This document shows positions 24,482 through 46,562 of a DNA stretch of 64,000 bases, piece after piece (within the stretch, counting starts at the first letter, position 1; each line of letters begins with the position of its first letter). The notes under the pieces are model-generated. The model ran no database searches, was not told where the DNA came from, and saw only the letters and a program-made list of their open reading frames with translations. Origin of the DNA: Planctomycetota bacterium (GTDB lineage: Bacteria; Planctomycetota; B15-G4; JADJEK01); assembly GCA_044225365.1 (NCBI GenBank), contig JBGAIQ010000009.1, positions 96,462 to 160,461 on the forward strand, in the 5' to 3' direction. The translations under genes were made by a program, and so were the position numbers.

Positions 24482-25765
24482 TCAGCCGCGGGTGCGGCGC
24501 AGGACGTCCGCGAGCGAGCGTGCCGAACGATAGCCGACGAGCTTCTCGACGATGCTTCCGTCCTTGTCGATGAAGACCATCGTCGGCACGATGGCCGCGT
24601 TGTGCCGCGCGGCGAGCGCGCGTTCGAGCGCCGGATTCAGTCGCACGCAGACGAAACGAGACCGCAAGAGCTCCGACACTTCGGCGTCCTGCAGAGTTCG
24701 CTGATCGAGATCACGCGCGATCTTCGACCAATCGGCGGTATAGAGCACGCAGAGCGTCTTCTTGTCCCTCTTCGCGAGCTCCTCGCCCTTGCCGATGTCG
24801 GTGAGCCATTCCACCGGCTTGTCGGTGCGGGGGCGCGGTGGCTCGAGCTGGAGCGGGTCGGAGTCGAGCAAGGCCTGCTGCGCGGAATCGACGCTCTCCT
24901 CGCCGACGTCGACCCGCCGCGCCTCCGGCATGAGACTCGTGATTCGATACGGAATGCCGCCGAACTGGATCGGAACGGTGCATGGAACGAGTTCGAGGCC
25001 CTGCGGGAGTGGCGCGCCTGGCGCGAGTTCGATCAGTGCCCAGCGTGCCGAGCCGACGGCGTACATCGCCGTACCGCTGTCGTCATAGAGCACGACCCGC
25101 GCGTCCTTGCCGAGCAGCTTCGCGGTTCCTTCGCGCCAGTTCGCATCGATCACGAAGAGCTTCGTCATCTCCGACGGATCGTTGGAGCGCGGGAGCCAGG
25201 AATAGAACGTGAATCGGCACGCGTCCTCGATCCGGTCCGAACCGCCGGACGTCTCAACCCTCGCGCCGAAGTAGACGGTGACGGGGACCGCGGTGAATTC
25301 GACGTAGTCGGTCTCGCGCTGCGGATCCTTCACGACGACACCCTTCACGGGCTCTTGTTCATCGCTCCCGGAGAAGGATTGATCGCGATCGCGATCGATC
25401 CACAGCAGGTCGTAGCGATGCGTCGAGGGATTCGATTGGTCGAGGATGATCGTCTGGCGCCCACCGCGGCCGAAGCGCACGATTCCGTAGAGCGGCGTGT
25501 CGCACCGGAGCTGCGGGAGTTGCTTGATCTCGAGCATCGGTTTCTGAGCGAGCGCGATGGCGGTCGGCGAGCGCGAGACGAACGGACGCTCAGCCGGGTT
25601 CCCGGCCACGAGTTCGAGGGGGAACGACGTCTTCTTGACGAGGTTTCCGGCCGTGATGCCAACCTGGTTCGGATCGTCCTGCTGCGGGTCGGGTTGTTGG
25701 GCGAACGCGCGGCTGAAGCACAGCGCGCCGAAGGCCACGGCGAAGGCGAACGGGAAACGAAGCAT
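24482..25765 (-). CDS. Secreted protein with C-terminal thioredoxin-fold domain lacking the CxxC active site
   Basis: ~427 aa from MLRFPFAFAVAFGALCFSRAFAQQ (signal). The C-terminus (KKTLCVLYTADWSKIARDL...IVPTMVFIDKDGSIVEKLVGY) is Trx-like, but the usual W-C-x-x-C reads W-S-K-I-A. Confidence 0.6.
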   Translation of the reverse strand: MLRFPFAFAVAFGALCFSRAFAQQPDPQQDDPNQVGITAGNLVKKTSFPLELVAGNPAERPFVSRSPTAIALAQKPMLEIKQLPQLRCDTPLYGIVRFGRGGRQTIILDQSNPSTHRYDLLWIDRDRDQSFSGSDEQEPVKGVVVKDPQRETDYVEFTAVPVTVYFGARVETSGGSDRIEDACRFTFYSWLPRSNDPSEMTKLFVIDANWREGTAKLLGKDARVVLYDDSGTAMYAVGSARWALIELAPGAPLPQGLELVPCTVPIQFGGIPYRITSLMPEARRVDVGEESVDSAQQALLDSDPLQLEPPRPRTDKPVEWLTDIGKGEELAKRDKKTLCVLYTADWSKIARDLDQRTLQDAEVSELLRSRFVCVRLNPALERALAARHNAAIVPTMVFIDKDGSIVEKLVGYRSARSLADVLRRTRG

Positions 25766-25829: not shown

Positions 25830-27032
25830 CTACTTCTGGAAGATCGGCAAGTACTGCTGCGGCATGAGGAGGATGAGGCACGCGGACGCCGTGGAATAGA
25901 CTCGACCGTAGTCGCTCTCACCGATCGAGCCCTTCGGATCCTGGCTCTCCGCGAACTCGTCGACGATCGCCGTCTGCCACGCGCGGAACAGACTGGGATC
26001 ACGGTACAGGTAGTAGGCCTCTGCCGCATAGAGCCGCGCGTAGAAGGGATGAGTATCGCCGAGAGTGCGCAGGCTGGGATTCAGAACCGGATCCTTGATC
26101 TGCATGTACTCGATGCCGCGGTCGATCACGTCGCTGGCATAGTCGCCCGTGGCGTTGAGGGTCGCGATGGCGGCAGCCGTGAGTCCGTAACTCACCTGCT
26201 CCTTCATCATCTTGCTGTAGCAGAAGGCCCCGCTCGGCCGCTGGAGCTCCCTCACGTACTTCACGGCGTCGTCGATGCATTGCTTGTTGACGTAGATTCC
26301 GACGTCGCGTGCCGCTCGCAGGGCCTGGATCATCGTGATGGTGACCGACCCCTCGTGCTCGGCGTCTCCGGGCTCGTAATACCAGCCGCCATCCTTCGTC
26401 TGCGACCATTCGATGAGCTGGACGGCGTCGACGAGGATCCGGCGCAGCTCGGCCATCTCGCCGCGCACGCGCTTCACCGAGCCGTCCCCGTAGGCATCGT
26501 CGATGCGGTAGGTGCCATAGGCCTCGGCGAGGGCGAGGGTCGCGTACCCGTGGCCGTGCATCTTCGACGTCCCGTCACCGGGGAACGAGAAGTAGATGTG
26601 GTTGACGTCGATGTCCTCGGCCTTGTCCTCACCCAGAATCCGATGCGCGGTGAACGTCGTGGCGTTGCCGCACTTCATGAGGAACTGGATCGCCTTCTGC
26701 ACGTTCTCGCGATACGGCCCGCGGCCGAGCGTCGAGCCACCCGCCATGAACGCGAGCGCACTGAGGGCGGTCACGGCGACGGGAGCCGACGTCACTCCGG
26801 TATCGGACTTCGCCTTGTTGAACTGACCATCCTCGGCCTGTTGCTTCGCGAGCCACTCGAGCCCGCGCTGGCCGATCTCGAACGCGCGATCCTCGACCTC
26901 GCGCGTGGCGTGCTGGGAATTCCCGTCCGATCCGAAACCGGCGCCGCTCGGGCGGCACATCGCCTTCGCCGCGACGAGGATTGCCGCGACAGCGAGGACA
27001 GTGCTTACCGGGATGGCGCGGGCCGGGATCAT
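25830..27032 (-). CDS. Secreted QW-motif prenyltransferase/squalene-cyclase-fold repeat protein (paralog 1)
   Basis: 400 aa. Signal MIPARAIPVSTVLAVAAILVAAKA. Repeats such as LEWLAKQQAEDGQF and LIEWSQTKDGGWYYEP (QxxDGGW). C-terminal ...QQYLPIFQK. Homologous along its length to 32941..34149. Confidence 0.7.
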   Translation of the reverse strand: MIPARAIPVSTVLAVAAILVAAKAMCRPSGAGFGSDGNSQHATREVEDRAFEIGQRGLEWLAKQQAEDGQFNKAKSDTGVTSAPVAVTALSALAFMAGGSTLGRGPYRENVQKAIQFLMKCGNATTFTAHRILGEDKAEDIDVNHIYFSFPGDGTSKMHGHGYATLALAEAYGTYRIDDAYGDGSVKRVRGEMAELRRILVDAVQLIEWSQTKDGGWYYEPGDAEHEGSVTITMIQALRAARDVGIYVNKQCIDDAVKYVRELQRPSGAFCYSKMMKEQVSYGLTAAAIATLNATGDYASDVIDRGIEYMQIKDPVLNPSLRTLGDTHPFYARLYAAEAYYLYRDPSLFRAWQTAIVDEFAESQDPKGSIGESDYGRVYSTASACLILLMPQQYLPIFQK

Positions 27033-27742
27033 CAGGGCTGCTTGCTCTTGTTCCGCGTCCGGTAGTACTGCAACAGGAGCTCTCGATAGCGGTCCGGGAA
27101 CTCGTTCTGCGAGAGCTTCTGGAACATCTCCTGGACCTTCGGCGGCAGGACGCCCCAGCGGCCGGCGACGTTCTCGCGCTGGTACTTCTCCTTCTCCGAC
27201 GGCGGATCGACGCCATCCGCCTTCTGCTGATCCGGCTTGCTCTTGTCCGGCCCACCATCCTTCGGCTGGCCCGATTTCTCCTCGGGCTTCTGCTTGCCCT
27301 CGCCCTTGTCCTTCTCGCCTTGCTGCTTCAGCTTGTCGACCTCGGGATCCTTGCCCCGCTCGTCCTGCTGTTTCTGCTGGGGAGAGTTCTTGGGATCGGG
27401 CTCGCCCGACCCCTTGCCGCCGCTGTTGGACTGCCGCTTCGCCATGCGGACGAGTTCCTCGATGTCCGTCACGGCCTGCGACTGCTTGGATTGGATGTCC
27501 TTCAGCAGCTTGTCGAGATCGGCTTTCACCTGCTCGATCCTCGCGGCGGCATCCTTGGGCGCATCCTTCGCAGCCTGCAACAGCAGCTCGTCGATCTCGC
27601 CCATCTCCTTACGGATCTTGGCTTGGAGCTCCTTCGCCTTGATCTCGTCGGCTTGTCCCCCGTCCTGCGCGACCGCGCGCTGCGCGCTCACGCCCGTGAG
27701 GATCGCCGCGACGCAGAGGAATCGCTGGATGCGCGTGTTCAT
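27032..27742 (-). CDS. Secreted low-complexity K/E/Q/D-rich protein
   Basis: 236 aa. Signal MNTRIQRFLCVAAILTGVSAQRAVAQ. Extremely charged body (KGSGEPDPKNSPQQKQQDERGKDPEVDKLKQQGEKDKGEGKQKPEEKSGQPKDGG...). Start overlaps the upstream stop; its own stop overlaps the downstream start. Confidence 0.55.
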   Translation of the reverse strand: MNTRIQRFLCVAAILTGVSAQRAVAQDGGQADEIKAKELQAKIRKEMGEIDELLLQAAKDAPKDAAARIEQVKADLDKLLKDIQSKQSQAVTDIEELVRMAKRQSNSGGKGSGEPDPKNSPQQKQQDERGKDPEVDKLKQQGEKDKGEGKQKPEEKSGQPKDGGPDKSKPDQQKADGVDPPSEKEKYQRENVAGRWGVLPPKVQEMFQKLSQNEFPDRYRELLLQYYRTRNKSKQP

Positions 27743-30525
27743 TTGCCACCCGGGCCCTTCTCGTCCTTCACTTCGACCGGCGGCCCCTGCGAGTCGTCGA
27801 TCATGCCGCGGAAGAGTTTCGTGATCTCGGAGTGCTGTAGTCCGAGGCGGGTCAGGCGGTCACGCGAAATCGCGTCGAGACCACCCTCCGCATTGGCGCC
27901 CTGGAGCCGCATGAAGACGTCGAGACGCTTCATCATGCTCTCCTCCATTCGCTTCAACATGAGCAACTCGGCGACGGGCGGGATCAAGGGCTGCTTCTGT
28001 TGCTGCTGCGGCGAATTCCCGTTCTGGCCGTCCGGCGGCTGGCCCTCCTCGCCCTCCTTCGGCTTGAGCTTCGCCTGCTTGCGGCGCTCGACTTCTTCAT
28101 CGAGGGTCGCGAGAAGCGTGTCGTAGCGATCGAGGATGTCGCGCGCGATCGACTGCGTGAAGTCGTCGGTGCGGTAGGGAGCGGTCCCGAGCAGTTCGGT
28201 CACTCGATCGAAATCGCCGTCGTTCTGCTCGAGCGCGAACGTGAAGACCGTCGCTCCATCCTCGCGCAGCTTCGACACGACCTCCTGATTCTGCACCTTC
28301 AGTTCTCGCGACTTCTGCGCGAGCTTCTTCGACGTATTCTGTCCGACTCGCGACAGCTTGCCCTTGCTCTGGCGCTCGAGTTCGAGCTCCTCGGTCTTGG
28401 CTACGACCTCACCCTGGCCCGTACGAAGGAGGGTCAACTGCTCCTTCACCTTGAAGAGCAACTCCTCCTGGCGAAGGTTCTGGTACTTGTCCTTCTCCTG
28501 CTTCAGTTCCTGCTCGGCCTTCTTCAAGAACTTCTCGGCTTCTTCCTGGCGCGGGGTTGCTTCCTCGCCCTGCTCCTTCTTGAGGCTCGATGCCGCCTGA
28601 TCCATCTTCGATGCGGCGGCGGAGAGCGACTGCTCGCGTTCGGGCTTCTTCTCGTCGCGGATACGATCCATCAGCTCTTTCAGCTTCTTCTCGAGCTCCC
28701 GCTGACGGCTCTCGAGGTCGTCGTACTTCTGCTGCTGATCCGCGGCCGAAGGGGAGTCCTTCGCGGACTGCTCGGCTTCCGACTGCTGCTGGTCGAGCTC
28801 CTGCGAGGCCTTCTCGAGTTGTTCACCCGCCTCGCTCTGGCTCTTCGCTGCTTTCTCCTGCTGGCCGCTGCGCATCGATTGCGCCGCCTGCTGCATCGAC
28901 TGCGCCGCCGACTCCACGGCCTTCGAGGCTCCCGACGGCGAATCCTTCTTCATGGCCGCGTCGAGGCGGGAGAGCGTCTTCGCGAGAGCCTCGGCCTGCT
29001 GGCTCGCGTACTCCTGCTTCGCGGCGAGGGAGTCGCTCCGTTCCTGCGCAGCCTTCTCGGCACCGTCGATCGCGTTGCGCGCCTCCTTCATCTTCTCGAG
29101 CGCATCGCGTTGCGCCGCGGCCGCGCCTTCGAGGTCGGGCTTCTCCATCTCGGAACCGGCTTCGTTCGCCGCTTGCGCGCTCTGCTCGAGCGCCGCCGCC
29201 GCGTCGCTCGCTCGCTTCTGCGCCGCTTGGTTTCGTTCGGCGGCCTGCGGATCGCCCGCACTCTTCGAATCGCGTGAGTCCTGCGTCGGCAACTTCTCCA
29301 CCCGGGAAGCAGCTTCTGCGAGCTTCTTCGCTTCGTCACCGAGTTCGCGTTGCTGGTCGGCCGCCTTCGCGTCGGTCGCCGACTTCGAGAGCGCCTTGTC
29401 GAGCTGCGCCTTCGCGGCATCGACGTTCTCGTTCTCGGCGTTCGCGAGCTGCGCCGCCGTGGACGCGTCGCCGTTCTTCTCGGCGTCGCGCGCCGCCTTC
29501 ATCCGCTCCGAAGCACTCGCGAGTGCTTTGGCGAGGGCTTCGCGGGCGGTTGCGATCTCGGCGGCGTTCGCCGGATCCTTCGCGCCGTTCTCGCCGTTCT
29601 TTGCGTCGGCCGCGGTCGCCTCCTGTGACAACGCGTCCTTCGCCGCCGCGAGTTGTTCGGCAACCTTCTTCATCGCGTCGGCGTCGCCCGCGGCCTTCGA
29701 GTCGTCAGATGCGTCGGCCTTGGACTTCGGGGAGCCGTCGGCGGAGGCTGCCTCGGCCTTCTTGGCAAGGTCCTTCGCGAGAGCCTTCTGGGCTTCGATC
29801 GCGGCCTGTGCAGCGAGGAATCCGGGAGCCGCCCGCTCGAGCGAGTTCTCGGTCGCTGCGAGCGCGGCATTCTGCTTCGCGATCAGGTTCTCCAACTGGT
29901 GCTTCAGAGCGGCGAGTGCCGAGTCCTTCGACTGCGACTCGCTCGTGTTCTCCTTCGCCAGCTTCTGTTCGTTCTCCTTCAGGTCCTTCAACTGACTCTT
30001 CGCCTGCTCGGCGAGAGCCTTCGGATTCGTCGCCAGAACGGTCGTCTCGTTCGTCAGCTTCTGCTGCTCGCTCCGCACCTGCGCAATGTCGCGGACCGCT
30101 TGTTCGAGCTTCTTGGCTTCGGCGTCGAGCGAATCGAAGTCCGTTCGATCGAGGAGGATCGCGTACACGGACTCGAGATCCTTGAGCAGGTCCTCCTGCT
30201 CCTTCACCGAGGCGAACTCCTGGCGGTCGAGACTCGACCCGATCTTCTCGATCGTTCGGGTCAGCTCGCGCTTCTTGATCTCGGCGATCGCATTGTCGAG
30301 CAGGTCGGCGCTGTGCTGCTTTCCCTCCGCCCGCAGCCGCTTCGACAGCGACTCCATGTTCTTCTTCGTCGACTCGATGCGGCTCTTGAGGTTCTGCTGC
30401 TCCTGCGAGATGCGTTTGACGTCGGTCGCGGCGTCGGTCTCATCGCTCGCCCACGAGCGTGCGAACGGCAGTGCACAGAGCGACAGCGAGAGGAGACACG
30501 GAGCGAAGTGGAATCGGCTTCTCAT
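27739..30525 (-). CDS. Secreted giant coiled-coil protein (A/K/E/Q/S-rich, ~928 aa)
   Basis: From MRSRFHFAPCLLSLSLCALPFARSWASDE (signal). Almost entirely heptad-like charged helical sequence. The ORF-track start at 30669 is trimmed to this internal ATG. Confidence 0.6.
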   Translation of the reverse strand: MRSRFHFAPCLLSLSLCALPFARSWASDETDAATDVKRISQEQQNLKSRIESTKKNMESLSKRLRAEGKQHSADLLDNAIAEIKKRELTRTIEKIGSSLDRQEFASVKEQEDLLKDLESVYAILLDRTDFDSLDAEAKKLEQAVRDIAQVRSEQQKLTNETTVLATNPKALAEQAKSQLKDLKENEQKLAKENTSESQSKDSALAALKHQLENLIAKQNAALAATENSLERAAPGFLAAQAAIEAQKALAKDLAKKAEAASADGSPKSKADASDDSKAAGDADAMKKVAEQLAAAKDALSQEATAADAKNGENGAKDPANAAEIATAREALAKALASASERMKAARDAEKNGDASTAAQLANAENENVDAAKAQLDKALSKSATDAKAADQQRELGDEAKKLAEAASRVEKLPTQDSRDSKSAGDPQAAERNQAAQKRASDAAAALEQSAQAANEAGSEMEKPDLEGAAAAQRDALEKMKEARNAIDGAEKAAQERSDSLAAKQEYASQQAEALAKTLSRLDAAMKKDSPSGASKAVESAAQSMQQAAQSMRSGQQEKAAKSQSEAGEQLEKASQELDQQQSEAEQSAKDSPSAADQQQKYDDLESRQRELEKKLKELMDRIRDEKKPEREQSLSAAASKMDQAASSLKKEQGEEATPRQEEAEKFLKKAEQELKQEKDKYQNLRQEELLFKVKEQLTLLRTGQGEVVAKTEELELERQSKGKLSRVGQNTSKKLAQKSRELKVQNQEVVSKLREDGATVFTFALEQNDGDFDRVTELLGTAPYRTDDFTQSIARDILDRYDTLLATLDEEVERRKQAKLKPKEGEEGQPPDGQNGNSPQQQQKQPLIPPVAELLMLKRMEESMMKRLDVFMRLQGANAEGGLDAISRDRLTRLGLQHSEITKLFRGMIDDSQGPPVEVKDEKGPGGK

Positions 30526-30569
30526 GGTGTGCCTTACGACCGATTGCGCGCGGCGGGGTTCCATCGTTG

Positions 30570-32906
30570 TCATTCTCTCTTCAGCGACTGCTTGGTGCGC
30601 TGATTGAGCGACCGTTGATCCTCGACCAGATTGCGAAACGTCGCAACGATCTCTTGAAAACTCTCCCACTCATCGAGGCGGGCGATCAAGGCGTCGAGCC
30701 GTTCGAGCGCCCGTTTCTCCTCCTCGAGGGCTTGCCGCAAGGCCAAGGGCCGCTGCGCAGGATCGACGGCGAGCCGTGCATCGGACAGCGCTTTCGCGGC
30801 CGCCGGCGAATGCAGCTCGGCGACGTCGATCACGCAATGGATCATCTCGAAGATGCGACCGAGGATCTCGAGTCGACCGTACGCACTCGCGGCGTTCGCT
30901 TCGACGAGCGGTCGCCACAGCTTCGGATCGAACCCGTCCAATTGGGAGCTGCCGCGCTTCTTCTCGAGCATCACCGCGATCAATCCTTCGACGCCCGAAC
31001 TCGTGTCGAGCCGATTGAAGAGGTACTCCTCGAAGATCTCCGCGAACTCTCGGCACTGCTTCAGCGACCGTGCGGTCACCTGGTTCTGGCCCACCTCGAG
31101 CGTGGCGACGTCATCGGCCGTCGCGCCGGTCACCCCTTCGGCCTGGTCGAACTCCTTCAGGATCACTTCGAGTCGCTCGATCTTCTCCTGCTGGAGAGCG
31201 CGCAAGGAGCCGACCTCCTCCTTGGTGCGAGTCTGACGCTCCGCCAGGAGTCGCTGTTTCTCGCCGGGCGCGACGATGTCGACGCGCCGCTCCTCGATCG
31301 CCGTCTCGTTGCCGCCGGTCGAGGGCTTGCCGTCCTTGCCAAGGACGATGCCGTCGAAATTGTCCTTGGCCGCGACGCGATAGACGAGCGACTCCCCCGC
31401 CGCCATCGCGCGCGGCCCGCCTTCGTGCTCGAACACCTTCTGCTTGAGGTCGAGGTGCTCGTAGACGAGGACGCGACGCGATTCGTCCGGACCCTTGCCG
31501 ATCGGGAAGTCGATCTTCAGCGGGGTCGCACCGCCAAACGGCTTCATCTCGATCGCGAGGCTCGTGAGTCCGTAATCGTCGTCGGCGGCGATCCGCAACG
31601 GAACGATGCCGTTCGGTGTCACGTCGACGTCGGCGCGGCCGGGCTCGAGGACTCGCACGGTCGGACCGCGATCCTTGACGGCGAGGACCGAGTAGGTCGG
31701 GGGTTCGAGATTCTTGAACCCGATGTCCGAGACCAGCTCGATGGAATAGGCGCACGACTGCGTGATGTCGAACGACGCTCGCAGCTTCCGCGAATTCGAA
31801 TCGGCGACGAGTAGAAGCGGCAGTGCCGCGATCCCGCTGTCGAAGACGAGGCGACCGGCGGCCACCGCATCGGCGGTCTGGACGTCGATCGTGACGTGTG
31901 TCCCGACGAGTCCTTCCACGTCGCCTCGTGGTTCGACCCGCGGTCCGAGACCGGTGTAGGCCGGGAACTGGAGCTGCGACGTGACGCTCGCGACCGCGGG
32001 CGGCGTGAAGATCTCGACTTCGACTTCGCGGCCGCCGCCATCATCGTCGCCGCCGACCGGTCGGAACGTGAAGGGCGCGCGCACCGATCGGAACCGGCCC
32101 GCCCACTCACCATTGCCCGTCGACGACAGGGCGATCTTCGAATCCCCGCTCTCGCGCGACTCGGTCCGGACCTCGACGAGCTCGGGGTTCTCGCCGTTCG
32201 CCGTCACTGCGACCGGCAGACTCGCGCCACGAGCGATGCGGACGCGAATCGGGCGCTTCTCGTTCGAGGAGTCCTTCGCGTCGTATTCCACGACGTAGTG
32301 CGTGCCGTGCTCGGGGAACTTCACCGCGAGCATCGTGCGTTGCGGCCATCGTGCGCTCCCGCCGAGTAGGCGGCGGAAGAAGACGTCGGCGAGCGACGAC
32401 TGCGTCGCCACGAACGTGATGACGCCGAGGACGAGCACGGCCGCCGCCGCGCCGAGGCGCTGCAGGTGCCGATACTCGAAGATCGTCGAAAGGGGCAGGG
32501 TGGCCCGGATCGCCGAAGTCTCGCGCCGCAAGTCGGCGACGAGCTCGGGCGACACGTTGCGCTGCGGATCGATCGCCTCGCCCTCGAGTTCGAGGACCGC
32601 GAGCAGACGGCCGTCGAACTGCGGGAAGCGCCGCTCGATCGCACACGCGACATCGCGCTCGGTCGGCCGCTTCTTCAGGGGGTAGACGATGCCGCGATAT
32701 ACCTGCACGGCGAGGCCGGCGACGACGACGAGCAGCAGCACGATGCGAACCGGCGCGGGCAGGGCGAGCGACCGATCGAGGACGTAGAGGGCGGCGAGCC
32801 CGCAGCATACGAAGGCGACGACGCGCGCGATTCCATACAGCAGCGCGAGCTTGAGCCAGCGGCCCGCGAGACGCGAGAATTCGGCGCGCAGTTCGTTCAG
32901 GTCCAT
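30570..32906 (-). CDS. Membrane protein (two N-terminal TM helices + ~650-aa extracytoplasmic region), possibly DUF4175-like distal component of MoxR/vWA operons
   Basis: 778 aa. MDLNELRAEFSRLAGRWLKLALLYGIARVVAFVCCGLAALYVLDRSLALPAPVRIVLLLVVVAGLAVQVY (2 TM). beta-rich middle, coiled-coil C-terminus. Family assignment not verifiable here. Confidence 0.55.
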   Translation of the reverse strand: MDLNELRAEFSRLAGRWLKLALLYGIARVVAFVCCGLAALYVLDRSLALPAPVRIVLLLVVVAGLAVQVYRGIVYPLKKRPTERDVACAIERRFPQFDGRLLAVLELEGEAIDPQRNVSPELVADLRRETSAIRATLPLSTIFEYRHLQRLGAAAAVLVLGVITFVATQSSLADVFFRRLLGGSARWPQRTMLAVKFPEHGTHYVVEYDAKDSSNEKRPIRVRIARGASLPVAVTANGENPELVEVRTESRESGDSKIALSSTGNGEWAGRFRSVRAPFTFRPVGGDDDGGGREVEVEIFTPPAVASVTSQLQFPAYTGLGPRVEPRGDVEGLVGTHVTIDVQTADAVAAGRLVFDSGIAALPLLLVADSNSRKLRASFDITQSCAYSIELVSDIGFKNLEPPTYSVLAVKDRGPTVRVLEPGRADVDVTPNGIVPLRIAADDDYGLTSLAIEMKPFGGATPLKIDFPIGKGPDESRRVLVYEHLDLKQKVFEHEGGPRAMAAGESLVYRVAAKDNFDGIVLGKDGKPSTGGNETAIEERRVDIVAPGEKQRLLAERQTRTKEEVGSLRALQQEKIERLEVILKEFDQAEGVTGATADDVATLEVGQNQVTARSLKQCREFAEIFEEYLFNRLDTSSGVEGLIAVMLEKKRGSSQLDGFDPKLWRPLVEANAASAYGRLEILGRIFEMIHCVIDVAELHSPAAAKALSDARLAVDPAQRPLALRQALEEEKRALERLDALIARLDEWESFQEIVATFRNLVEDQRSLNQRTKQSLKRE

Positions 32907-32940
32907 CGGTTGATCGGGTCCGTCTCGTGGTCCATCGGGC

Positions 32941-34149
32941 TCAGCGCTGCAGGATCGGCAAGTACCGGTAAGGGACCTGCAGGATGATCGACGCTACGGC
33001 GGTCGAGAAGGCGTCGCCGGGACCCTCCTTGTTGCGCCAGAAACCGTCGCGCGTCTGCACGTTCAACAGGTCCGCCTTGATGCTTTTATAGTACCGACTC
33101 CACCACGGGTCGCCCGCGACAAAGAACGCCTGCACCGCGTAGTAGTGGCCGTACCAGAAGAAGAAGTGTTCGTAGCGACTCCGCATCTGGTCGTACTCGC
33201 GCTCGAGGAGATCGAGCGACTCGCGAAGGGTTTCGTTCGAGTACACGCCTGCGTTGTAGAGCGATGCGATCCCCGCCGCCGTGAGCGCGAACGAACTGCG
33301 CGTGTTGTCCTGCTTCTGATACTTGAACGAGCCGCGCTTCAAGAAGTAGTAGTCGTTCGAGTCGCCGTATCCCGCGTAGGGGTCGTCCTCCGGCTGATAG
33401 GAGTCGATGACGTACTTCACGGCGTTGTCGATCGTGGTCTTCGGGACCTTGATCCCGATGTTGCGAGCCGAGCGCAGCGCCATGATCTGGCAGACCGTGA
33501 TCGACATGTCGGACTCGATCGCGAACGGCTCGTAGCGCCACGAACCGTAGCTGTTCTGCGATTCGACGATGAGGTCGACGGCGCGCTGCAGTTTCTCGCG
33601 CAGGTCGTTGCGATGCGTCATCCCGACGACTTCGGACAGGAAGAGCGTCGCGAACGCGTGGCTGTACATGCGCGTTCCGTCGCGCGAGATGTAACCGTGC
33701 TCGTCGACCGAGGTGAGGATGAAGTCGATCGCCTTCGTCAGCGTCTCGCCGTAGCGGCCGCGACCCGGCAGATTGCCGCCCGCGAGGTACGCCATGCCCG
33801 CGAGCGCCGTCACCCCGACGTGATGGACCTTCTCGTGCTCGACCATGTAACTCTGATTCAGCTTGAAGCCGACATCCCCGGTCCACGAGCCGTCGGCGTT
33901 CTGCTGCTTCTGGAGCCAGCGCAGCGCCTTGTCGACCGCGGTCGCCACCGCGGGATCGGGATCATCGGCACCCACGTTCGAATCGTCGCTCGCAGTGACG
34001 GGGACGGGTGCGATGGGCGACACCCCGAACGACACGAGCGGCGCGAGGAGGACGAAGCCCACGCCGAGTCCGAGCGACCGAAACATTCTCATGGATTCGA
34101 TTCCTTCAAGCGTTCGCGCGGGGTCCATCGACTTTCCTTTGCCGCTCAC
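32941..34149 (-). CDS. Secreted QW-motif prenyltransferase/squalene-cyclase-fold repeat protein (paralog 2)
   Basis: 402 aa. LRWLQKQQNADGSWTGD, VESQNSYGSWRYEP. C-terminal ...VPYRYLPILQR. Clear homology to 25830..27032. 4-nt overlap with the upstream gene. Confidence 0.7.
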   Translation of the reverse strand: MSGKGKSMDPARTLEGIESMRMFRSLGLGVGFVLLAPLVSFGVSPIAPVPVTASDDSNVGADDPDPAVATAVDKALRWLQKQQNADGSWTGDVGFKLNQSYMVEHEKVHHVGVTALAGMAYLAGGNLPGRGRYGETLTKAIDFILTSVDEHGYISRDGTRMYSHAFATLFLSEVVGMTHRNDLREKLQRAVDLIVESQNSYGSWRYEPFAIESDMSITVCQIMALRSARNIGIKVPKTTIDNAVKYVIDSYQPEDDPYAGYGDSNDYYFLKRGSFKYQKQDNTRSSFALTAAGIASLYNAGVYSNETLRESLDLLEREYDQMRSRYEHFFFWYGHYYAVQAFFVAGDPWWSRYYKSIKADLLNVQTRDGFWRNKEGPGDAFSTAVASIILQVPYRYLPILQR

Positions 34150-37100
34150 TTCGAAGTCTCGTAGACGGCGAGAGCCGTTCCGGACAGGACCGCGAAGTGG
34201 CGCGGGGTTGCAACGCTCTGCACCGGCGCGCGTTCCGAGGTCAGCGGGATCTCGACCGCGGCGAACGTGCCGGCATCGGGCGCGAACGTGAATAGGTACG
34301 TGCGCCGGGGATTGCCCGACGCACGCCGGATCTCCGCGAGACCGTAGACGTCACCGGTTCGGGTGAGCGACGCGCGGAACGTCGGACTCCCGGGGGGCAG
34401 GGCCGTCATGTCGACCGTTCGTTCGATCGCTTTCTTGTCGAGGTCGATCACGACGAGGCGATCCCGCTTCGCCGCTCCCGACCCCGTGCCCGCGCCGACG
34501 AGCACGAAGCGGCGCTTGGACGTGCCGCTTCCCGTGTCGAAGGCTCGCAGGTTCTCGAGGCCCATGACACACTGTTCGACCGTTCCCGTCCGCGGCTCAA
34601 GTCGGCTGACCGAAACGATCCCGCGCGGGGATCGCGTGTAGGTCGGCGAGGTTCCCTTGGGCAACAGGAATCCGTTCGTGGTCGGAACGAGCCACTCGAA
34701 CGACATCGGGAACGGCACTTCCTTCACGTAGGCGAGCGGCCGACCGTCCTCGAGGTCGAACGACGCGAGCGACTTCGTCTCGGCGTTCTCGCGACCGAGC
34801 GTCAACACGACGCCGAACTCCTCGTAAGCGCGCGCTTCGAACCGCTTGTTCATCGCGAGGTTCGAGATCGCGAAACGCTTCACGCCCGTGAGCGCATCGA
34901 GCGACACGACCGTCGGCTGCTCGCTCGCGCCGATCGCCAGCACGGCATCGCGGACGGCTTGGATTTCGAGGCACTCGAAATCGAGCGGCGTCGACCACAG
35001 CACCATGCCGGTCGCGGTCTCGACGGCGACGATCATCGAAGCGCCTTGCGTCGGTGGCGTGAGCAGCGCGAAGATCAGGCTGCCCGCGGAATCGACCGCC
35101 CCCACCGAGGCCCCGGAACTCCCGGCGAGGCTCGTATCGAAGCGGGTGATACCGCTCTTCTTGTCGATCCCGAACAGCCGATCCCGCTGCCGAAAGACGA
35201 TGCGATCTCCGATCGAGAACGCTCGCAGCGGGTCGAGGTCCGACGCATAGGCCGGCACGCGAACGTGCCAGATCTCCGACAACGTCGCGAGGTCGATGCG
35301 ACGCAAGACGGCGTCGGGCGCTCCGAGTTGCTCCTCCTCGTACACCAGGATCGCATCCTCGGAGTCGAATTCGACGGGGACGAGCACGCTGCGCGTCACC
35401 TGGAGTTCGAGCGTCTTCGCCGCAGGATCGGGGAGTCGCTCGAGGCGCGCCCTCTCCGCGACCGCGGCCGGCTCGGCCCCGAGGGCTTCGAGATCACGGG
35501 TTGCGACGCTGCGCACGTCCGAGGCCGGCTCGACGACGCTCGCGGCCGCCGAACCCGTCGCGACGATGCGCTTCAGCATGAGGCGAGCGAGCGCGGAATC
35601 GCCAGCGAGCGCGGCGCCGCGCGCAGCGAGGAGGAGAGCGTTCTGCCGATCGCCGTCGTCGTTCGCGGAAGTGAGCAGCGGCGCGACGACGCGGAACACC
35701 TCGGAGTACTCCTTGCGTTCGAGGCGGATCATCGCGAGGTCGAGACGCGCCCGCGGCGCCGCGGCGGCGTTCGGGAATCGCATCACGATCTCGAGGAGGG
35801 CCGCCGCATTGCGCGACGCGCTCGCCGCGCTGCGGGCGTCGCTCGCGGCGGCGTCGAATTCGGCGTAGATCGATCGGCCGTACTTTGCGATGGCATCCGC
35901 GATGAGTCGCTCGGCGTGCTTGCCCGCAGTTCCACCCGGGAAAGGGGTGTCGCGATACAGATCGATGATCCGCTGCCAACTCGAAACCGCCGCCTTGGCG
36001 TCGCGGCGGCCGAGCGCATACACGGCGCGCCGATCGAGGGTGTAGAGACCCGCGGGGATCGGAGTGCCGTAGGCGTTCGCCGCGAAGGCGTACTGCGCAT
36101 TCGGACAGCGCTCGTCGATCCAGTCGAGGACCGCCGGGATCCGCGAAGGATCCGCAGCCTCGAGCGAGTGGATCAACTGTTCGCAGGCGCGGAGGAAGTC
36201 GGCGTCGTCGAGGGAATGCTCCGCCTCCGCGAATCGGTGCTGCGCGGCCACCGCTGCGAGCCCGGACTTGTCGGCGCGTTCTGCGAGTTGATGATGCGCC
36301 ACCGCGAGTCGCTCGTGTGCGCGACGAACCAGGCTCGCATCGGTCGCGGGGGACGAGATCGATGGATCGGCCAGTACGCCCTCGAACTCCGTGATCGCAC
36401 GCTCGACGTTACCGCGCAGTGCCAGCAACTCTCCGAGATCGACGTGATCGGCGAGCGTGCCCTTGCCGCTGCCGATCCGCGTCTCGACGCGCTGGATCAG
36501 GTTCTCGAGATCGTAGAACACCGTCATCTGGCTCGCGGAGACGACGATCTGGAAGTCGCGATGCACCAGGAGATTCCCGGGCAATCCCGCCGAGTCCGAG
36601 AAACCCCAGTCGAGCGTGCGATCGCGCAGATCCATTCCCGCCTTGGTCCGCTGGTACCGCAATTCGAGCAGGCCTTCGGCGAGCGGTTGGAAGAGGACAC
36701 CGTCGCCGAGGCAGCCGCGGCCCGCGTACGACCGCGCCTGGCGGAAGCGATAGGCCCCGAGGAGTCGACCGTTGCGAAGATCGTGGAAACCGATCCCGCT
36801 CGGCCCGGAGAAGATCACGGCCCCCTGATCCACACCGAGCACGGTGCAGTAGTCGAAGGGATGGTTCTTGTCCTGATTGCACTCGACCGACCAGAGGATC
36901 TTGCCCGTCGACGCCTCGTACGCGTAGGCCGAATCCGAGTCGAGCGGAGTGACGATGCAGACTCCCTCGCGCACGATGGCCGGATCGTTGATCCAGAACC
37001 GCGGCCGCTCGAAGGTGCGTCGATAGTGACGCGTCGCCTTGATGGGAATCGCTTCGTACTGCGCGAGCCAGCGAGGATTGCCGGTGAGACCGTCGAGGCA

Positions 37101-38780
37101 GCCGGAGAGCCCGAGATTCGTCGACAGGAAGATCGAGCCGTCCTTCTCCGCGACCATCTGGGTCGTGAATTCCTTGAACGGCTTGTTGAACATCGTCAGC
37201 TCCTGCTGACCGATGACGAGCGGCGTCTTCCACAGGAGCGAGCCGTCCTGCAGCGAGAGGCACATCGCGTAGACGTTGATCGCGCCCTCGAGCAGCGAAC
37301 CCGTCACGTAGATCCGATCCCCCACCGCGACGGGCGCCGAGAGGATCGAGACACGATTGATGAAATCGTGGAGCGGGCGATCATCGCGCCGCATGCGCCA
37401 CAGCAGCCTGCCGTTCTCGACGTCGACCGCGTAGAGCCCGCGCCGCGGAACGGTCTGGGTGATGCGCGTCTGATCGAACTCCACGTCCCGGCCGTGGGGC
37501 GCGGGTTCGAGGAGGGCGCCGAGAACCACGTGATCGGAGATCGTCGCGACGAGCGGCAAGGAGCGGGCCAGGGTCCCGAAATCGTTGTCCATTCCGGGCA
37601 TCGGGCTGTCCCAGAGCAGACTGTTGAAGTCGTAGAGCTGGGGCGCGACGGAGCCCGAGAGCGGCCCGATGTACTTCCACTTCGGCGTGGCCGAGTAGAA
37701 CGACCAGGCGCGGATCGAGAGACCATCGCAGAGGACGATGACATCGGAGGCGACGACCGGATGGAACGGACTCGATTCCCGGATCTCGCGAACCCGACGC
37801 CACGGATTCTCGTCACCACTGAAGGAGTCCGTCGTCCAGCGCGACGCGAACGTCAGCGCCTCGGGATCGAACTGGACGAGTCCATCGTGGGCGCCATTGC
37901 CGCCGACCACCGGCCACGCGGCGTCCCTCGGGGGCATCATCGAGCCGAACTCCGGCAGGATCCCACGGGCTTTCGCCGGCGAGCCGGAGACCGTGACGGA
38001 GGGATCGCCGAATCGCTCGATCCAGCGCGACGCCGGCGAGTCCGAACGGCCGAACGCCGCCGACGCGGCCGCGAGGAATGCATCCCCGGATGCCTTCTCC
38101 GCTGTGCTCGATACGGATTCGAATGCCAGCTTGCGGCCGTAGAAACGCTCGGATGCTTCGAAATCACCGCGCTCGAGGGCGAGGCGACCGAGACGATCGA
38201 GCGCGCGTTGCCCTTCGGGAGTGAGTTCCCAGAAGCGCACGAACTCGATCAGCTTCGAAGGATCCTGGGTCTCGGCGATCGCCCGCCAGAGCGACTCGGA
38301 TCGCAGGCGAGCGAACTCGGTGTAGGCGGCGCGACCCTCGGCCGGGAACGACGCGATGAGGTACTTTGCGTACTCCGCGGCCCCGACGTAGCGCGGCGGG
38401 TCGTTCGCCACTTGGTAGACGTGTGTCGGGTAGAGAGTGATCAACTCCTGGAGCGAGTCACACGCGACGCGGTATTCGCCGCGCCGCATCGCATCGCGCG
38501 CCGACTCGAACAGCACGCGGACCCGCGCCGTCGTCTGCACCGCGAACGTCGCGACGGCGCTGTGATCCGGGTCGTACTTGAAGTTCGGGTCCTGGATCGA
38601 CTCCCATCCGCCGAACGGCAAGAACGGTTCGTCCTGGGCCCGCAGGACCGAAGTCGTCAGGAGGCCAACGACGACCGCGGCCACCGCCGCGCCGGAGGCA
38701 GTGGAGATGCGAGCGGCCGGAACGGCGGCCGTTGCTCGCGGCGCGCCCTCGTCCGTGCGGTGTTTCGAAGCGAGCTTCAC
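34146..38780 (-). CDS. Giant (1544 aa) secreted PQQ-like beta-propeller repeat + TPR-like protein
   Basis: Signal ...AAVAAVVVGLLTTSVLRAQ. Multiple PQQ/BamB-like propeller blades (GRLLWRMRRDDRPLHDF..., DGSLLWKTPL, GKILWSVE, GMVLWSTPLD). Helical TPR-like stretches between propellers. Confidence 0.7.
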   Translation of the reverse strand: MKLASKHRTDEGAPRATAAVPAARISTASGAAVAAVVVGLLTTSVLRAQDEPFLPFGGWESIQDPNFKYDPDHSAVATFAVQTTARVRVLFESARDAMRRGEYRVACDSLQELITLYPTHVYQVANDPPRYVGAAEYAKYLIASFPAEGRAAYTEFARLRSESLWRAIAETQDPSKLIEFVRFWELTPEGQRALDRLGRLALERGDFEASERFYGRKLAFESVSSTAEKASGDAFLAAASAAFGRSDSPASRWIERFGDPSVTVSGSPAKARGILPEFGSMMPPRDAAWPVVGGNGAHDGLVQFDPEALTFASRWTTDSFSGDENPWRRVREIRESSPFHPVVASDVIVLCDGLSIRAWSFYSATPKWKYIGPLSGSVAPQLYDFNSLLWDSPMPGMDNDFGTLARSLPLVATISDHVVLGALLEPAPHGRDVEFDQTRITQTVPRRGLYAVDVENGRLLWRMRRDDRPLHDFINRVSILSAPVAVGDRIYVTGSLLEGAINVYAMCLSLQDGSLLWKTPLVIGQQELTMFNKPFKEFTTQMVAEKDGSIFLSTNLGLSGCLDGLTGNPRWLAQYEAIPIKATRHYRRTFERPRFWINDPAIVREGVCIVTPLDSDSAYAYEASTGKILWSVECNQDKNHPFDYCTVLGVDQGAVIFSGPSGIGFHDLRNGRLLGAYRFRQARSYAGRGCLGDGVLFQPLAEGLLELRYQRTKAGMDLRDRTLDWGFSDSAGLPGNLLVHRDFQIVVSASQMTVFYDLENLIQRVETRIGSGKGTLADHVDLGELLALRGNVERAITEFEGVLADPSISSPATDASLVRRAHERLAVAHHQLAERADKSGLAAVAAQHRFAEAEHSLDDADFLRACEQLIHSLEAADPSRIPAVLDWIDERCPNAQYAFAANAYGTPIPAGLYTLDRRAVYALGRRDAKAAVSSWQRIIDLYRDTPFPGGTAGKHAERLIADAIAKYGRSIYAEFDAAASDARSAASASRNAAALLEIVMRFPNAAAAPRARLDLAMIRLERKEYSEVFRVVAPLLTSANDDGDRQNALLLAARGAALAGDSALARLMLKRIVATGSAAASVVEPASDVRSVATRDLEALGAEPAAVAERARLERLPDPAAKTLELQVTRSVLVPVEFDSEDAILVYEEEQLGAPDAVLRRIDLATLSEIWHVRVPAYASDLDPLRAFSIGDRIVFRQRDRLFGIDKKSGITRFDTSLAGSSGASVGAVDSAGSLIFALLTPPTQGASMIVAVETATGMVLWSTPLDFECLEIQAVRDAVLAIGASEQPTVVSLDALTGVKRFAISNLAMNKRFEARAYEEFGVVLTLGRENAETKSLASFDLEDGRPLAYVKEVPFPMSFEWLVPTTNGFLLPKGTSPTYTRSPRGIVSVSRLEPRTGTVEQCVMGLENLRAFDTGSGTSKRRFVLVGAGTGSGAAKRDRLVVIDLDKKAIERTVDMTALPPGSPTFRASLTRTGDVYGLAEIRRASGNPRRTYLFTFAPDAGTFAAVEIPLTSERAPVQSVATPRHFAVLSGTALAVYETSK

Positions 38781-38951: not shown

Positions 38952-40896
38952 TCAGTGCGGGTGGGAGACCTGGGAATCGTCGCTCGGACCGCGCGCCAGC
39001 TTCTCGAGCCGCAGGCGATAGGTACGAAGGATCTGCTCGCGTGACAGCAGCCCAATCAATTTCCAGCGATCGCCATCGGGAACCACGATCGGTACCTCGT
39101 CGCACTCCTCCTCGGAGAGCTTCTGGAGGGCCGTGAGCAGCGGGTCGTCCGGGCGGACGATCGGGTAGGCATCGCTCATCATCTCCGAGACCAGGACGAG
39201 TCGGTGGACGCTGGTGTCGAGCAAGAGGTCGCGAACGTCCTCGATCGTGACGATGCCGAGCACGAATCCGGCTTCGTCGAGCACCGGAAAGCACTGCTGC
39301 CGCGTCCGTCGCAGCATCTGGACCATGTCGGCGATCGTCTGACCCGGCTTCAGTGTCGCAACCTTCGAATGTTGAGCCGTGGCGTTCTCGACGGTGAGTG
39401 GCGCGAGCACGTCGACGCTGTACGAACCGAGGTGTGCCGGCGACTCGAAGCGCGATCCAACCTGGGCCGTGTAGACCGACGCGCGACCGGTGAACACGTA
39501 GGCGAGCGCGCAGACCAGCACGAGCGGCAGGAGCAGTCCGTACGAGCCGGTGATCTCGCACACCATGACGAGTCCCGCGATCGGCACCTTGGTGATACCG
39601 GCGAACACACCGCTCATGCCGACCAGGACGTAGGCCCCCGGATCGGTGACGACGTCGGGGAACAGGAGATGCGCGAGCTGTCCGTAGCCCGCACCCACCA
39701 TCGCGCCGATGTAGAACGCAGGGCCGAACACGCCTTCACCCCCGCGCGTCGCGAAGGTGATGCCCGTCGCGAGCGATTTGGCGAGCGCGAGTCCGAGCAG
39801 GAAGAGCACGCCGCGCATTCCGGGGCCCGCGAGGCTGCCATCGATCGCTTGCTGCACCCAGCCGTAGCCGGTGCCCCACACCTCTGGAACCGCGAGAACG
39901 AGCACGCCGAGGAGGAGCCCGCCGATCGCCGGCCGAGCGAACGACGGCAGCGTGAAGCGCGCGAAGATCTTGTCGAAGACGCCCACGCGCAGCGTTTTCA
40001 GCGCCATGACGTAGACGATGCCGGCGAGCGCGCAAACGAGTCCGAAGACAGCGTAGATCGGCAGCTCGAGCGGCGACATCAGTTTGAACGCCGTCGCATG
40101 GAAGACCGGTGTCCAGCCGTAGACACAACCGAAGGTCGCGTACGCCGAGAGCGACCCGATGATCGCGGGTACGAACGCCGTGTACTCGAACTCCGGATTG
40201 CGATACGGCGACTCGATGGCGAAGATCGCGCCCGAGAGCGGTGCGCGGAAGATCGCCGCGAACCCGGCCGCCGCGCCGACGAGTAGCGAGATCCGCCGAT
40301 CCGCAGAGCGCAGCTTGAACGTATCGGCGATCTTCGAACCGATCGCCGCTCCGAGTCCGACCGCCGGCCCTTCGCGACCGACCGACCCACCGGAGCCGAT
40401 GACGACGAGCGAACTGAGCGCTCGCAGGACTGGATCCTTCAATCCGAATTTCCCGCGTCGCTGATGGAACGCATCGAGCACGCCGTCGGTTCCGCCGCGG
40501 GTGGGATCGGGCCGTGCGATCGTGAAGAGCAGGCCCGCGAGGAGTCCACCGAGGCCGGGCACCAGGACGAGCATCCAGCGAATCGGTTCCGCGACCGCGC
40601 TGCCCGTGGGCTCGGGCGGATCGCCGCCGGGCACCGGCGGATGGAACGACGCGAGGCGATGCGTGAAGAACGCGACCGCGAGCCGCAGCGCCTCGAAGAA
40701 CACGATCGACACCGCGCCCGCGAGGACACCGATCAGCACCGCGAGGAAGAACCACTTCGCCGCGTGGCGGATGTCGGGCAGCGACGTGAACGAGGCCGGA
40801 CGCGACGCGTCCCGGCCGACAGGATGGAACGGCGCGATACGAGTCGTCGCGCTCGCCGCCGGATCGGGCCGTTTCAGATCAGATTGAATCTCTTGC
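38952..40896 (-). CDS. ClC-family chloride channel/transporter with C-terminal CBS pair
   Basis: GSGGSVGREGP and GAIFAIESPY (ClC selectivity-filter motifs). ~10 TM segments. C-terminal CBS domains (VLDEAGFVLGIVTIEDV, VVPDGDRWKLIGLLSREQIL). Start uncertain: candidate GTG ~40896 overlaps the upstream gene; the ORF-track start at 41192 is spurious. Confidence 0.8.
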
Positions 40897-45648: not shown

Positions 45649-46562
45649 CGCCGCGAACCTCGCCGTTCGCGCAGCGCGAGGTACGAAGTGAGTGCGACGT
45701 CGAGCGGCGTGTCGGTGAGGAGCACGCGGAAGTCGACTCCGTTGTTGAGACAGCCCTTCTTCAACTTGGCCTGATGCGCGTTGAAGACCTCAAGGTACGC
45801 GGCGCGCAGGGCCTGAGGATCGGCGATCAGGTCGCCCATCCCCTCGAGGCCCTCGAACTTCATCATGCGGTCGAACGCGAAGTCGACTTCGTCACGATCG
45901 AGCACCTGGAAGACCATGACGTCTTGCCGCTTGGTCTTGAGGGCGCGGATCCCCGCGAGCACTTTCTCGGGCGGCGCGAAGAAGTCCGAGATGACGGCGA
46001 CGATCGATCGCGGCGGGAGTCGCGTAGCGAGTTCACGCAGTGCGAGCCCAGGGTCGGTCTTCTTCACGAGCTTCACGCGCTCGATCGCGTCCGTGATCTT
46101 GAGCAGGTGCGAGGGCCGCGTCGCCGCGGGAACCCATTTGTCGACGTCCTCGCTCGTGAGCGCGAGCGCGGCGGCATCGCGGTGATCGAGGACGAGGAAC
46201 GACAAGGTCGCCGCGACGAATGCGCCGTAACGGAACTTGCTGACCCGATCGACGCCCGCGTAGCTCATGGACTCCGAGCAGTCGAGGACGATCGACAGCG
46301 TGAGGTTCGTCTCTTCCTCGTAGCGCTTGATGTAGTAGCGATCGGATCGTCCGAAGATCCGCCAGTCGAGATGGCGCAGGTCGTCGCCGGGCACGTATTC
46401 GCGATGCTCCGCGAACTCGACGGAGGCCCCGCGATGCGGGCTCTTGTGCATCCCGGCCATGAATCCTTCGACGGCCTGGCGCGCCTTCAGTTCGAGGCGC
46501 CCCAGCTTGTCGAGGACCTTAGGATCCAACCACTGGCGGTAGTCGTGTGTCGCTGAGGACAT
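45645..46562 (-). CDS. DUF58 (vWA-like) protein, MoxR partner
   Basis: 305 aa. LDPKVLDKLGRLELKARQAVEGFMAGMHKSPHRGASVEFAEHREYVPGDDLRHLDWR is the canonical DUF58 N-terminus. Confidence 0.85.
   Translation of the reverse strand: MSSATHDYRQWLDPKVLDKLGRLELKARQAVEGFMAGMHKSPHRGASVEFAEHREYVPGDDLRHLDWRIFGRSDRYYIKRYEEETNLTLSIVLDCSESMSYAGVDRVSKFRYGAFVAATLSFLVLDHRDAAALALTSEDVDKWVPAATRPSHLLKITDAIERVKLVKKTDPGLALRELATRLPPRSIVAVISDFFAPPEKVLAGIRALKTKRQDVMVFQVLDRDEVDFAFDRMMKFEGLEGMGDLIADPQALRAAYLEVFNAHQAKLKKGCLNNGVDFRVLLTDTPLDVALTSYLALRERRGSRR

Follow-up and report, generated by a model that had tools for sequence, protein, structure and literature searches.

Operons in which a MoxR-type AAA+ ATPase is encoded together with a DUF58 protein and a BatA-type von Willebrand factor A (vWA) protein constitute a conserved type with reported links to stress and the cell envelope (PMC5700661). 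The operons named Bat and Cmd affect aerotolerance, morphology and envelope integrity, and the mechanism of MoxR-DUF58-BatA operons has been unresolved since 1999 (PMC5700661). In the present study, an operon of this kind was analyzed in a 64,000-nucleotide stretch of a Planctomycetota contig (JBGAIQ010000009.1; hereafter the window). Its distal part contains two paralogous genes, torA and torB, for probably exported alpha/alpha-toroid proteins with a squalene-cyclase fold. Based on the sequences and structure models, we propose that both toroids would serve an envelope machine of the Bat/Cmd type as periplasmic subunits that bind or connect other components and are not cyclases, a reading to which we give about an even chance.

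Two paralogous toroids in a MoxR operon

The window has a G+C content of about 65%, and its minus-strand genes are tightly packed as one run between 24.5 and 47.6 kb. By domain content and gene order, this run is an operon of the Bat/Cmd MoxR class, with the MoxR, DUF58 and BatA genes adjacent and co-directional. All of the following genes lie on the minus strand. The MoxR-type AAA+ ATPase (46519..47622; AAA_3 E 3e-63, AAA_lid_2 E 1.5e-18) is followed by the DUF58 protein (45645..46562; Pfam DUF58 E 5e-39) and by a BatA-type protein with an N-terminal double-transmembrane region, a vWA domain and a CARDB domain (43330..45648; Pfam BatA 56.3 bits, VWA_2, CARDB), which also scores 67.9 bits against the NCBIfam model TIGR02226 (cut-off 23.05). 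Next are a vWA/GATase1-like/MG2-like protein, an 850-residue open reading frame (ORF) of uncertain start (40874..43426; VWA E 7e-8, GATase1_like E 4e-7, and MG2 at E 1e-4, below the Pfam cut-off), and a 1544-residue protein with TPR and PQQ-like beta-propeller regions (34146..38780; Pfam PQQ_2 E 4.5e-18, weak TPR matches). The distal part consists of torB (402 residues; 32941..34149), a membrane protein of 778 residues (30570..32906), a secreted protein rich in Ala, Glu, Lys, Leu and Gln (27739..30573), a small secreted protein of 236 residues rich in Lys, Gln and Glu (27032..27742) and, as the last gene of the operon, torA (400 residues; 25830..27032).

An earlier note on this DNA had described two ORFs of about 400 residues bracketing exactly three genes. 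Both ORFs and the three genes between them are present as described; this block is nevertheless incomplete, as its five genes close a longer conserved operon, MoxR-DUF58-BatA-vWA...DUF4175. Stop and start codons overlap at four junctions, namely PQQ/torB (GTGA, 34146-34149), membrane protein/coiled coil (ATGA, 30570-30573), coiled coil/small protein (ATGA, 27739-27742) and small protein/torA (TGATG, 27032), which suggests translational coupling. The start codon of torB is GTG, and the NCBI gene call is shorter (395 residues from 34128); P0001 is identical to torB over 395 residues.

The paralogy of the two toroids, also claimed in the earlier note, is well borne out. BLASTP aligns torA and torB over approximately 373 columns at 31% identity (E 1e-42), reaching the last residue, and profiles built from 62 and 65 homologues match end to end with a probability of 100 and 34% identity. 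Both proteins exceed the Pfam gathering cut-off of SQHop_cyclase_C (26.1 bits), torA with 33.1 bits and torB with 41.8 bits. Three QW repeats with Trp are present in torB (QQNADGSW, QNSYGSW, QTRDGFW), whereas torA has one (QTKDGGW) and three degenerate copies.

Fold and probable export of the toroids

In the AlphaFold2 models (pLDDT, the per-residue confidence measure, 86.5 for torB and 91.5 for torA), both proteins are all-helical single-domain toroids that carry QW motifs, each with one beta-hairpin insert at a position that differs between torA and torB. In a Foldseek search against the PDB, the top matches were the small class II cyclase-like toroids 8pak and 8paj, squalene-hopene cyclase (SHC), AprG, drimenyl-diphosphate synthase and MstE, followed by glycoside hydrolase family 76 (GH76), AGE-type epimerases and the thioester domains (TEDs) of complement and alpha2-macroglobulin (A2M). 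The E-values reached 1e-7 for SHC and 8pak, with structural-alignment (TM) scores of 0.5-0.66 overall and identities of 9-18%. Thus, the models make the alpha/alpha-toroid fold class secure, without a close solved relative, and they bear out the fold predicted in the earlier note.

The insert of the torB type (residues 90-109) is 13 residues longer, is modelled as a beta-hairpin and has invariant Gly94, Lys96, Leu97, Tyr101 and His110. This hairpin is missing from torA, and the corresponding segment of the toroids from Phycisphaerae is shorter; the lineage that has it is also the one with the TPR/PQQ giant, whose gene lies directly upstream.

The secretion assumed in the earlier note is likewise consistent with the sequences. 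An N-terminal hydrophobic, signal-like segment is found in approximately 90% of family members, several of which have long linkers rich in Pro, Ala and Ser behind it, and torA and torB probably carry export signals. General export by the twin-arginine translocation (Tat) pathway was considered and rejected, as RR-type motifs occur in just ~5-12% of the members of groups A-C; lipoprotein anchoring was also rejected, as lipobox-like sites are few. Some subgroups do have twin-arginine-like starts (..YPRREFLAQS.., ..NRRDWL.., ..SRRGAIGML..; L131 1795-2898, minus strand, L179 2271-3392 and L127 9260-10330), which hint at Tat export of pre-folded protein.

The three genes between the toroids

The two larger proteins encoded between the toroids together resemble one known protein type. 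The secreted A/E/K/L/Q-rich protein matches Pfam DUF4175 with 31.4 bits (cut-off 27.3) at model positions 646-795 of 825, and the membrane protein narrowly misses that cut-off with 26.2 bits at positions 192-325. Among orthologues, a DUF4175 match was obtained for 14 of 25 of the former and 5 of 25 of the latter (best E 5.8e-9). Because complementary parts of the model are matched, the two proteins look like a split DUF4175-type protein. The Acinetobacter baumannii "DUF4175" protein AdvA gave just a partial N-terminal match and was uninformative.

The A/E/K/L/Q-rich protein is presumably a coiled coil from its composition. The earlier note had given it 928 residues, and an ORF of this kind is indeed present, but its length would be 944 residues from the ATG at 30573 that overlaps the upstream stop; the full ORF has 976 residues (GTG at 30669), and 928 follow from the next ATG. 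An AT skew of the plus strand down to -0.42 at 28001-30000 coincides with the A/E/K/Q-rich coding of this gene. The membrane protein has three N-terminal hydrophobic segments (residues 25-43, 49-67 and 151-169), and its large domain is probably periplasmic.

No Pfam family matched the small secreted protein or the C-terminal end of the coiled-coil protein, even at E 10. The C-terminus of the small protein (WG.LP...YR..(L/I)..YYR in the window) is strongly conserved across Saltatorellus-like and Phycisphaerae-type operons as WG.LP..R..F......P..YR.WI..YYRRLN, for example in L131 (3007-3597), L153 (10586-11422) and L197 (7195-8100). Fusions of a toroid with this protein were not found.

Conservation of the operon

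When one genome per GTDB species was scanned, a torB orthologue was found in at least 557 genomes, nearly all of which are metagenome-assembled genomes of Planctomycetota; the cultured Saltatorellus ferox Poly30 (L049) has the full two-toroid operon. The proteins of the window operon were compared by tblastn with 80 retrieved GTDB loci. At all sufficiently flanked loci, the order (MoxR)-DUF58-BatA-vWA/GATase-PQQ-torB-membrane-coiled coil-(small)-torA was observed on one strand. The same order and strand were seen in L001, L083 and L084, and even distant torA relatives (38-40% identity) have this arrangement, with torA last and followed by a strand change. Four loci (L050, L056, L057, L067) have two tandem torB-like genes in addition to torA, and therefore three toroids, at about 8.8-12.3 kb of each locus.

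A one-toroid variant was found in Phycisphaerae (L131, L153, L197, L205, L206) through a metagenome scan for the C-terminal tail described below. It reads MoxR-DUF58-BatA-~780 residues-1070-1453 residues-small-toroid, in which the protein of 1070-1453 residues has a transmembrane segment and is helical, and the small protein that follows is secreted. The TPR/PQQ giant, which lies upstream of torB in the related loci, is absent from these operons. The toroids of the variant carry the tail and score equally against the torA and torB profiles. Mean identity is 43% within the torA group, 56% within the torB group and 67% within the Phycisphaerae group C. With neighbour joining and midpoint rooting, each group is monophyletic; torB is nearest to the Phycisphaerae group (43%), and torA, which is ~34% identical to both, stands outside. 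However, torA evolves faster, so that this placement, and any order of duplication read from it, may reflect a long-branch artefact.

The family extends well beyond these operons. With a profile of groups A+B+C, 6,421 clusters (50% identity) were obtained at E <= 1e-30 and 25,212 at E <= 1e-3. The toroid family is large and uncharacterized, and the operon is widely conserved in Planctomycetota with its function unsolved.

Proposed role of the toroids

Positions conserved in all groups are those of the QW type and, in torB numbering, His164, Asp/Glu214-x-Ser216, Tyr333, Tyr337 and Gln340. According to the predicted secondary structure, each of these six residues begins a barrel helix, with every other helix concerned, and helix N-termini are the usual place of functional residues in toroid enzymes and binders. 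Herein, we propose that the toroids are fixed subunits of a distal periplasmic module of the MoxR-DUF58-BatA/vWA operon. First, a periplasmic location is predicted, from hydrophobic segments and the distribution of charges, for both toroids, for the helical and the small protein, and for the large domain of the 778-residue membrane protein. The partners of the toroids in this module would be the membrane-anchored and the long secreted helical protein, which together form the split DUF4175-type pair, and the small secreted protein. Second, the toroid heads might hold a ligand or a partner segment via His164, Asp/Glu214, Tyr333, Tyr337 and Gln340. Third, the toroids would work on a periplasmic scaffold whose assembly or remodelling could depend on MoxR and DUF58 in the cytoplasm and on the vWA proteins in the membrane. 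We suggest this because of the gene order and of the way in which MoxR-vWA pairs generally behave. By analogy with Bat and Cmd, the output of the operon may be envelope integrity or stress tolerance.

Several points weigh against this proposal. The stand-alone toroids of group D, which bear the tail and occur alone in unrelated neighbourhoods, indicate that the family is not exclusive to the MoxR operon. The tie between MoxR/DUF58 and the putative periplasmic module comes from gene order alone. The DUF4175 matches are modest, one at 31.4 bits and the other, at 26.2 bits, under the cut-off, and the Phycisphaerae homologues gave no DUF4175 match. In addition, strong conservation (67% in group C) together with invariant His, acidic and Tyr positions is a pattern that an enzyme could show as well.

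The main rival follows from this last point, although we consider it unlikely. The toroids would be periplasmic enzymes, either glycan hydrolases or lyases or lipid-modifying enzymes, with a non-canonical His-Asp/Glu-Tyr centre that acts on peptidoglycan, exopolysaccharide or an envelope lipid. Envelope operons do encode enzymes with an alpha/alpha-toroid fold, among them BcsZ and AlgL. Besides the invariant residues at alternate helix N-termini and the identity within group C, glycan-active Foldseek neighbours (GH76, BT_3782, CPF_2247, AGE-family epimerases, and AprG with bound GlcNAc) and weak Pec_lyase or Glyco_hydro_88 Pfam matches in some members are in line with such an activity. However, toroid-fold glycoside hydrolases typically need an acidic pair, and a second conserved acid was not found; Ser216, at a helix N-terminus, may be a structural cap. 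The structural resemblance to enzymes is just that given above (TM 0.5-0.66, identity 9-18%), and no substrate-synthesis genes were found among the scanned operon products. The recurrence of the domain in signalling proteins, described next, also favours binding over catalysis.

Some relatives of torA and torB are fused to other domains. In two extracytoplasmic function (ECF) sigma factors, the order is Sigma70_r2/r4, a transmembrane segment and a toroid, and a Ser/Thr kinase combines a beta-helix and a CarboxypepD_reg domain with two toroids, which lie in its C-terminal part (P0445, P0489 and P0399 make up this sigma/kinase set). The toroid part of these fusions is presumed to be extracytoplasmic, and the terminal YLP motif of the tail is degenerate in the sigma fusions. 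Since the domain recurs at the presumed outer end of sigma factors and of a kinase, binding of a ligand or partner is the most economical role for it, and these fusions suggest that it is also a sensor elsewhere. A bolder reading, which we hold to be rather improbable, is that the toroid is a widespread, unrecognized extracytoplasmic sensor or ligand-binding domain of Planctomycetota and related bacteria, of which one to three copies serve as the sensing heads of a MoxR-powered apparatus. This apparatus would be built on a very long, periplasm-spanning coiled coil and would watch over the cell wall or outer membrane or remodel it. In other proteins, toroids of this kind would pass signals to ECF sigma factors and Ser/Thr kinases. 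If this were true, the duplicated toroids and the TPR/PQQ giant could relate to the envelope plasticity of the shape-shifting Saltatorellus clade.

Five further relatives (P0439, P0433, P0515, P0490, P0482) are proteins of 1370-1903 residues with two toroid domains each, between which lie a hydrophobic segment and a long linker of low complexity. In P0439, which was scanned against Pfam, PD40 (TolB-like) repeats are present as well. These large proteins are a separate uncharacterized family.

The C-terminal tail

The C-terminal heptapeptides YLPIFQK of torA (25833..25853) and YLPILQR of torB (32944..32964) are present as the earlier note had reported. Counted back from the C-terminus, LP stands at -6/-5 in each of 240 homologues (120 of the torA type and 120 of the torB type), whose chains typically end in Q-[RK], and the pattern [YFL]LPI[FLV][QEH][RK] is terminal in 120/120 of the torB homologues. 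The same ending was seen in 116 of 120 Phycisphaerae-type homologues, and the last residue of the tail is almost always Arg or Lys. In torA and torB, the chain ends two residues after the LPIF-type motif, with no hydrophobic helix or basic stretch after it. Within 1.42 Mb of related loci, 132 of the 133 ORFs with this ending are toroids, and the odd one has 28 residues. A degenerate DNA pattern for the YLPIFQR codons and a stop was also searched across metagenomes, giving 120 loci; 119 of 122 ORFs with the tail belong to the toroid family, and the other three have 9-18 residues.

The models assign a pLDDT of 93 to the last 10 residues of torA and of 90 to residues 391-400 of torB, which suggests a packed element rather than a free tail. 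In the multidomain relatives, each toroid domain ends in "..LEVYYRYLP[LM]Y", which aligns to the final positions of the family profile, and the copy that closes the first domain lies 780-1551 residues from the C-terminus. A few single-domain members also have 2-18 additional residues past the motif. On the models and alignments, therefore, the tail is best described as a conserved structural end of the toroid domain and not as a targeting signal.

A different role for the heptapeptide would be that of a docking peptide that a partner reads, such as the 1544-residue protein with its TPR region or a C-terminal processing protease. The strictly terminal position of the tail in nearly all single-domain members, its final Arg or Lys, and the TPR-containing protein encoded directly upstream and translationally coupled to torB would all suit such a role. 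Yet the confidence in the monomer models suggests intramolecular packing, and the motif is equally conserved in Phycisphaerae and in stand-alone toroids that have no TPR/PQQ neighbour. With its homologue internal in multidomain proteins and some members continuing for 2-18 residues beyond it, docking appears distinctly doubtful.

Tests for cyclase, prenyltransferase and thioester chemistry

Catalytic motifs were counted in 120 sequences each of the torB, torA and Phycisphaerae types. The cyclase motif DxDD was present in 2, 5 and 1 of these, respectively, and no Asp-rich motif was found at any predicted helix N-terminus of torA or torB when the sequences were compared with the helix lists of the models. 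The Asp-x-Cys of the prenyltransferase zinc site occurred in 5/120 torB-type, 21/120 torA-type and 0/120 Phycisphaerae-type sequences. For the thioester motif C[GAS]EQ (CGEQ), the counts were 0, 2 and 0; Cys220 is invariant in torB-type proteins and is Thr, Cys or Ala in the torA type. Seven of eight local hidden Markov model alignments to SHC fell on QW motifs, the remaining one scoring below zero, and the NCBIfam cyclase models TIGR01787, TIGR01507 and TIGR03463 gave 22-41 bits against cut-offs of 323-851. Neither a PPTA-repeat protein (alpha subunit) nor isoprenoid genes were found among the scanned operon products.

Judged from their sequences, torA and torB thus appear to keep the squalene-cyclase fold and its QW staples without cyclase chemistry and are unlikely to be terpene cyclases. 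This agrees with the earlier note, which had already doubted that they cyclize terpenes; its further idea of a thioester scaffold like that of TEDs does not stand, given CGEQ in 0-2 of 120 members, whereas the lipid or isoprenoid ligands that it also suggested may or may not be bound. That the toroids are genuine cyclases or prenyltransferases, as their database names say, or thioester-forming TED-like traps, is very improbable. SQHop_cyclase_C does score above its cut-off, with weak Prenyltrans and TED_complement matches, and cyclases are the best Foldseek matches of proteins that carry the source name "terpene cyclase/mutase family protein". However, DxDD, D-x-C and CGEQ are not features of the family, similarity to SHC is found only at the QW repeats, and the NCBIfam scores are far below cut-off. 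The single-domain architecture also differs from the beta-gamma architecture of cyclases, and the export signals, together with operon scans that gave no isoprenoid or alpha-subunit genes, point away from both enzyme types.

Least credible of all is the earlier suggestion that the tail sorts or anchors exported proteins: although it is invariant, terminal and borne by proteins with export signals, its carriers in both scans are toroids, apart from ORFs of at most 28 residues. The tail also has high model confidence, multidomain relatives have its counterpart inside the chain, and it lacks the hydrophobic helix or basic stretch that follows the motif in LPXTG and PEP-CTERM signals.

The approximately 6,400 clusters (50% identity, E <= 1e-30) carry the database names "terpene cyclase/mutase" or "prenyltransferase". 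These names are probably misleading because the catalytic motifs are lacking and the proteins are predicted to be exported, and they would inflate counts of terpenoid enzymes in Planctomycetota. On the proposed binding or adaptor role, the toroid is a structured, soluble component that gives a testable handle on an unsolved operon, and a cultured host is available.

Neighbouring genes

A ClC chloride channel gene with two CBS domains (38952..41192, minus strand; Pfam/NCBIfam scan) interrupts the MoxR operon after the vWA/GATase-like gene and before that of the PQQ giant. By tblastn, L007-L010, the closest relatives, share it with the window, and all other loci are without it; its longest ORF overlaps the upstream gene, so that the true start is uncertain. 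A secreted thioredoxin-like protein of 427 residues with a C-terminal thioredoxin-like domain (24482..25765, minus strand) is encoded 64 nucleotides after torA, an arrangement that tblastn found in L007, L008 and L010 only. With a periplasmic redox protein as its last product, a Bat-type operon brings to mind the aerotolerance phenotype described long ago. Directly upstream of the MoxR gene, on the same strand, the operon may begin with a 755-residue ORF (47678-49945, minus strand) that weakly matches PQQ_2/beta-propeller. The PADLOC defence models, including those of MoxR-vWA conflict systems, gave no match at E <= 1e-3 to any of 10 proteins from the operon.

Comparison with known systems

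The window operon shares MoxR AAA_3, DUF58, BatA/vWA, GATase1-like and DUF4175-type proteins with the Bat operons and with CmdA-D of Rhizobium leguminosarum (RL3499-RL3502). Compared by published descriptions, it differs in a split DUF4175, an inserted TPR/PQQ giant and one to three fixed toroids. The DUF4175-type protein, with its transmembrane and low-complexity parts, is a feature of the alphaproteobacterial Cmd operons, for which the window has a two-gene equivalent. In the published Bat/Cmd domain descriptions found in the searched literature, there is no toroid protein. That literature likewise holds no account of toroid subunits, a split DUF4175 or a TPR/PQQ insertion in such operons, and the Saltatorellota preprint does not mention the operon genes.

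By descent, torA and torB belong to the toroid superfamily of squalene cyclases and prenyltransferases. Among toroid proteins, SHC (1sqc/2sqc), 8pak, 8paj and MstE (6sbb) have the fold, the QW motifs and SQHop_cyclase_C in common with torA and torB. Compared with these class II cyclases (TM 0.5-0.64), torA and torB are without DxDD, have a predicted export signal and stand in a MoxR/vWA operon. The beta subunits of farnesyl- and geranylgeranyltransferases are single alpha/alpha barrels of similar size, to which Prenyltrans (25.7 bits, just below the cut-off) and weak sequence matches in the PDB point; torA and torB differ in lacking the conserved Asp-x-Cys...His zinc site and a nearby alpha-subunit gene, and in being probably exported. 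The TEDs of A2M and complement are also extracytoplasmic toroids (TED_complement E 0.004, below the cut-off; Foldseek matches to the C5 TED, A2ML1 and TEP1), whereas torA and torB are without CGEQ and are free-standing rather than set among MG and CUB domains.

The PD40/two-toroid proteins, which are multidomain envelope proteins of the PVC type, and the sigma/kinase fusions belong to the same toroid family (150-354 bits to the A+B+C profile) and have a domain-final YLP motif. Unlike torA and torB, they are fused to signalling or TolB-like modules, lie outside the MoxR operon and continue past the motif. With regard to the tail, LPXTG, PEP-CTERM, GlyGly-CTERM and the C-terminal domain of type IX secretion substrates combine their motif with a helix and basic residues, or a folded domain, and act on diverse cargo; none of these features is shared by the tail of torA and torB. 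Taken together, the Bat/Cmd class of MoxR operons is already known, whereas the fixed toroid subunits, the split DUF4175 and the TPR/PQQ insertion appear to be new.

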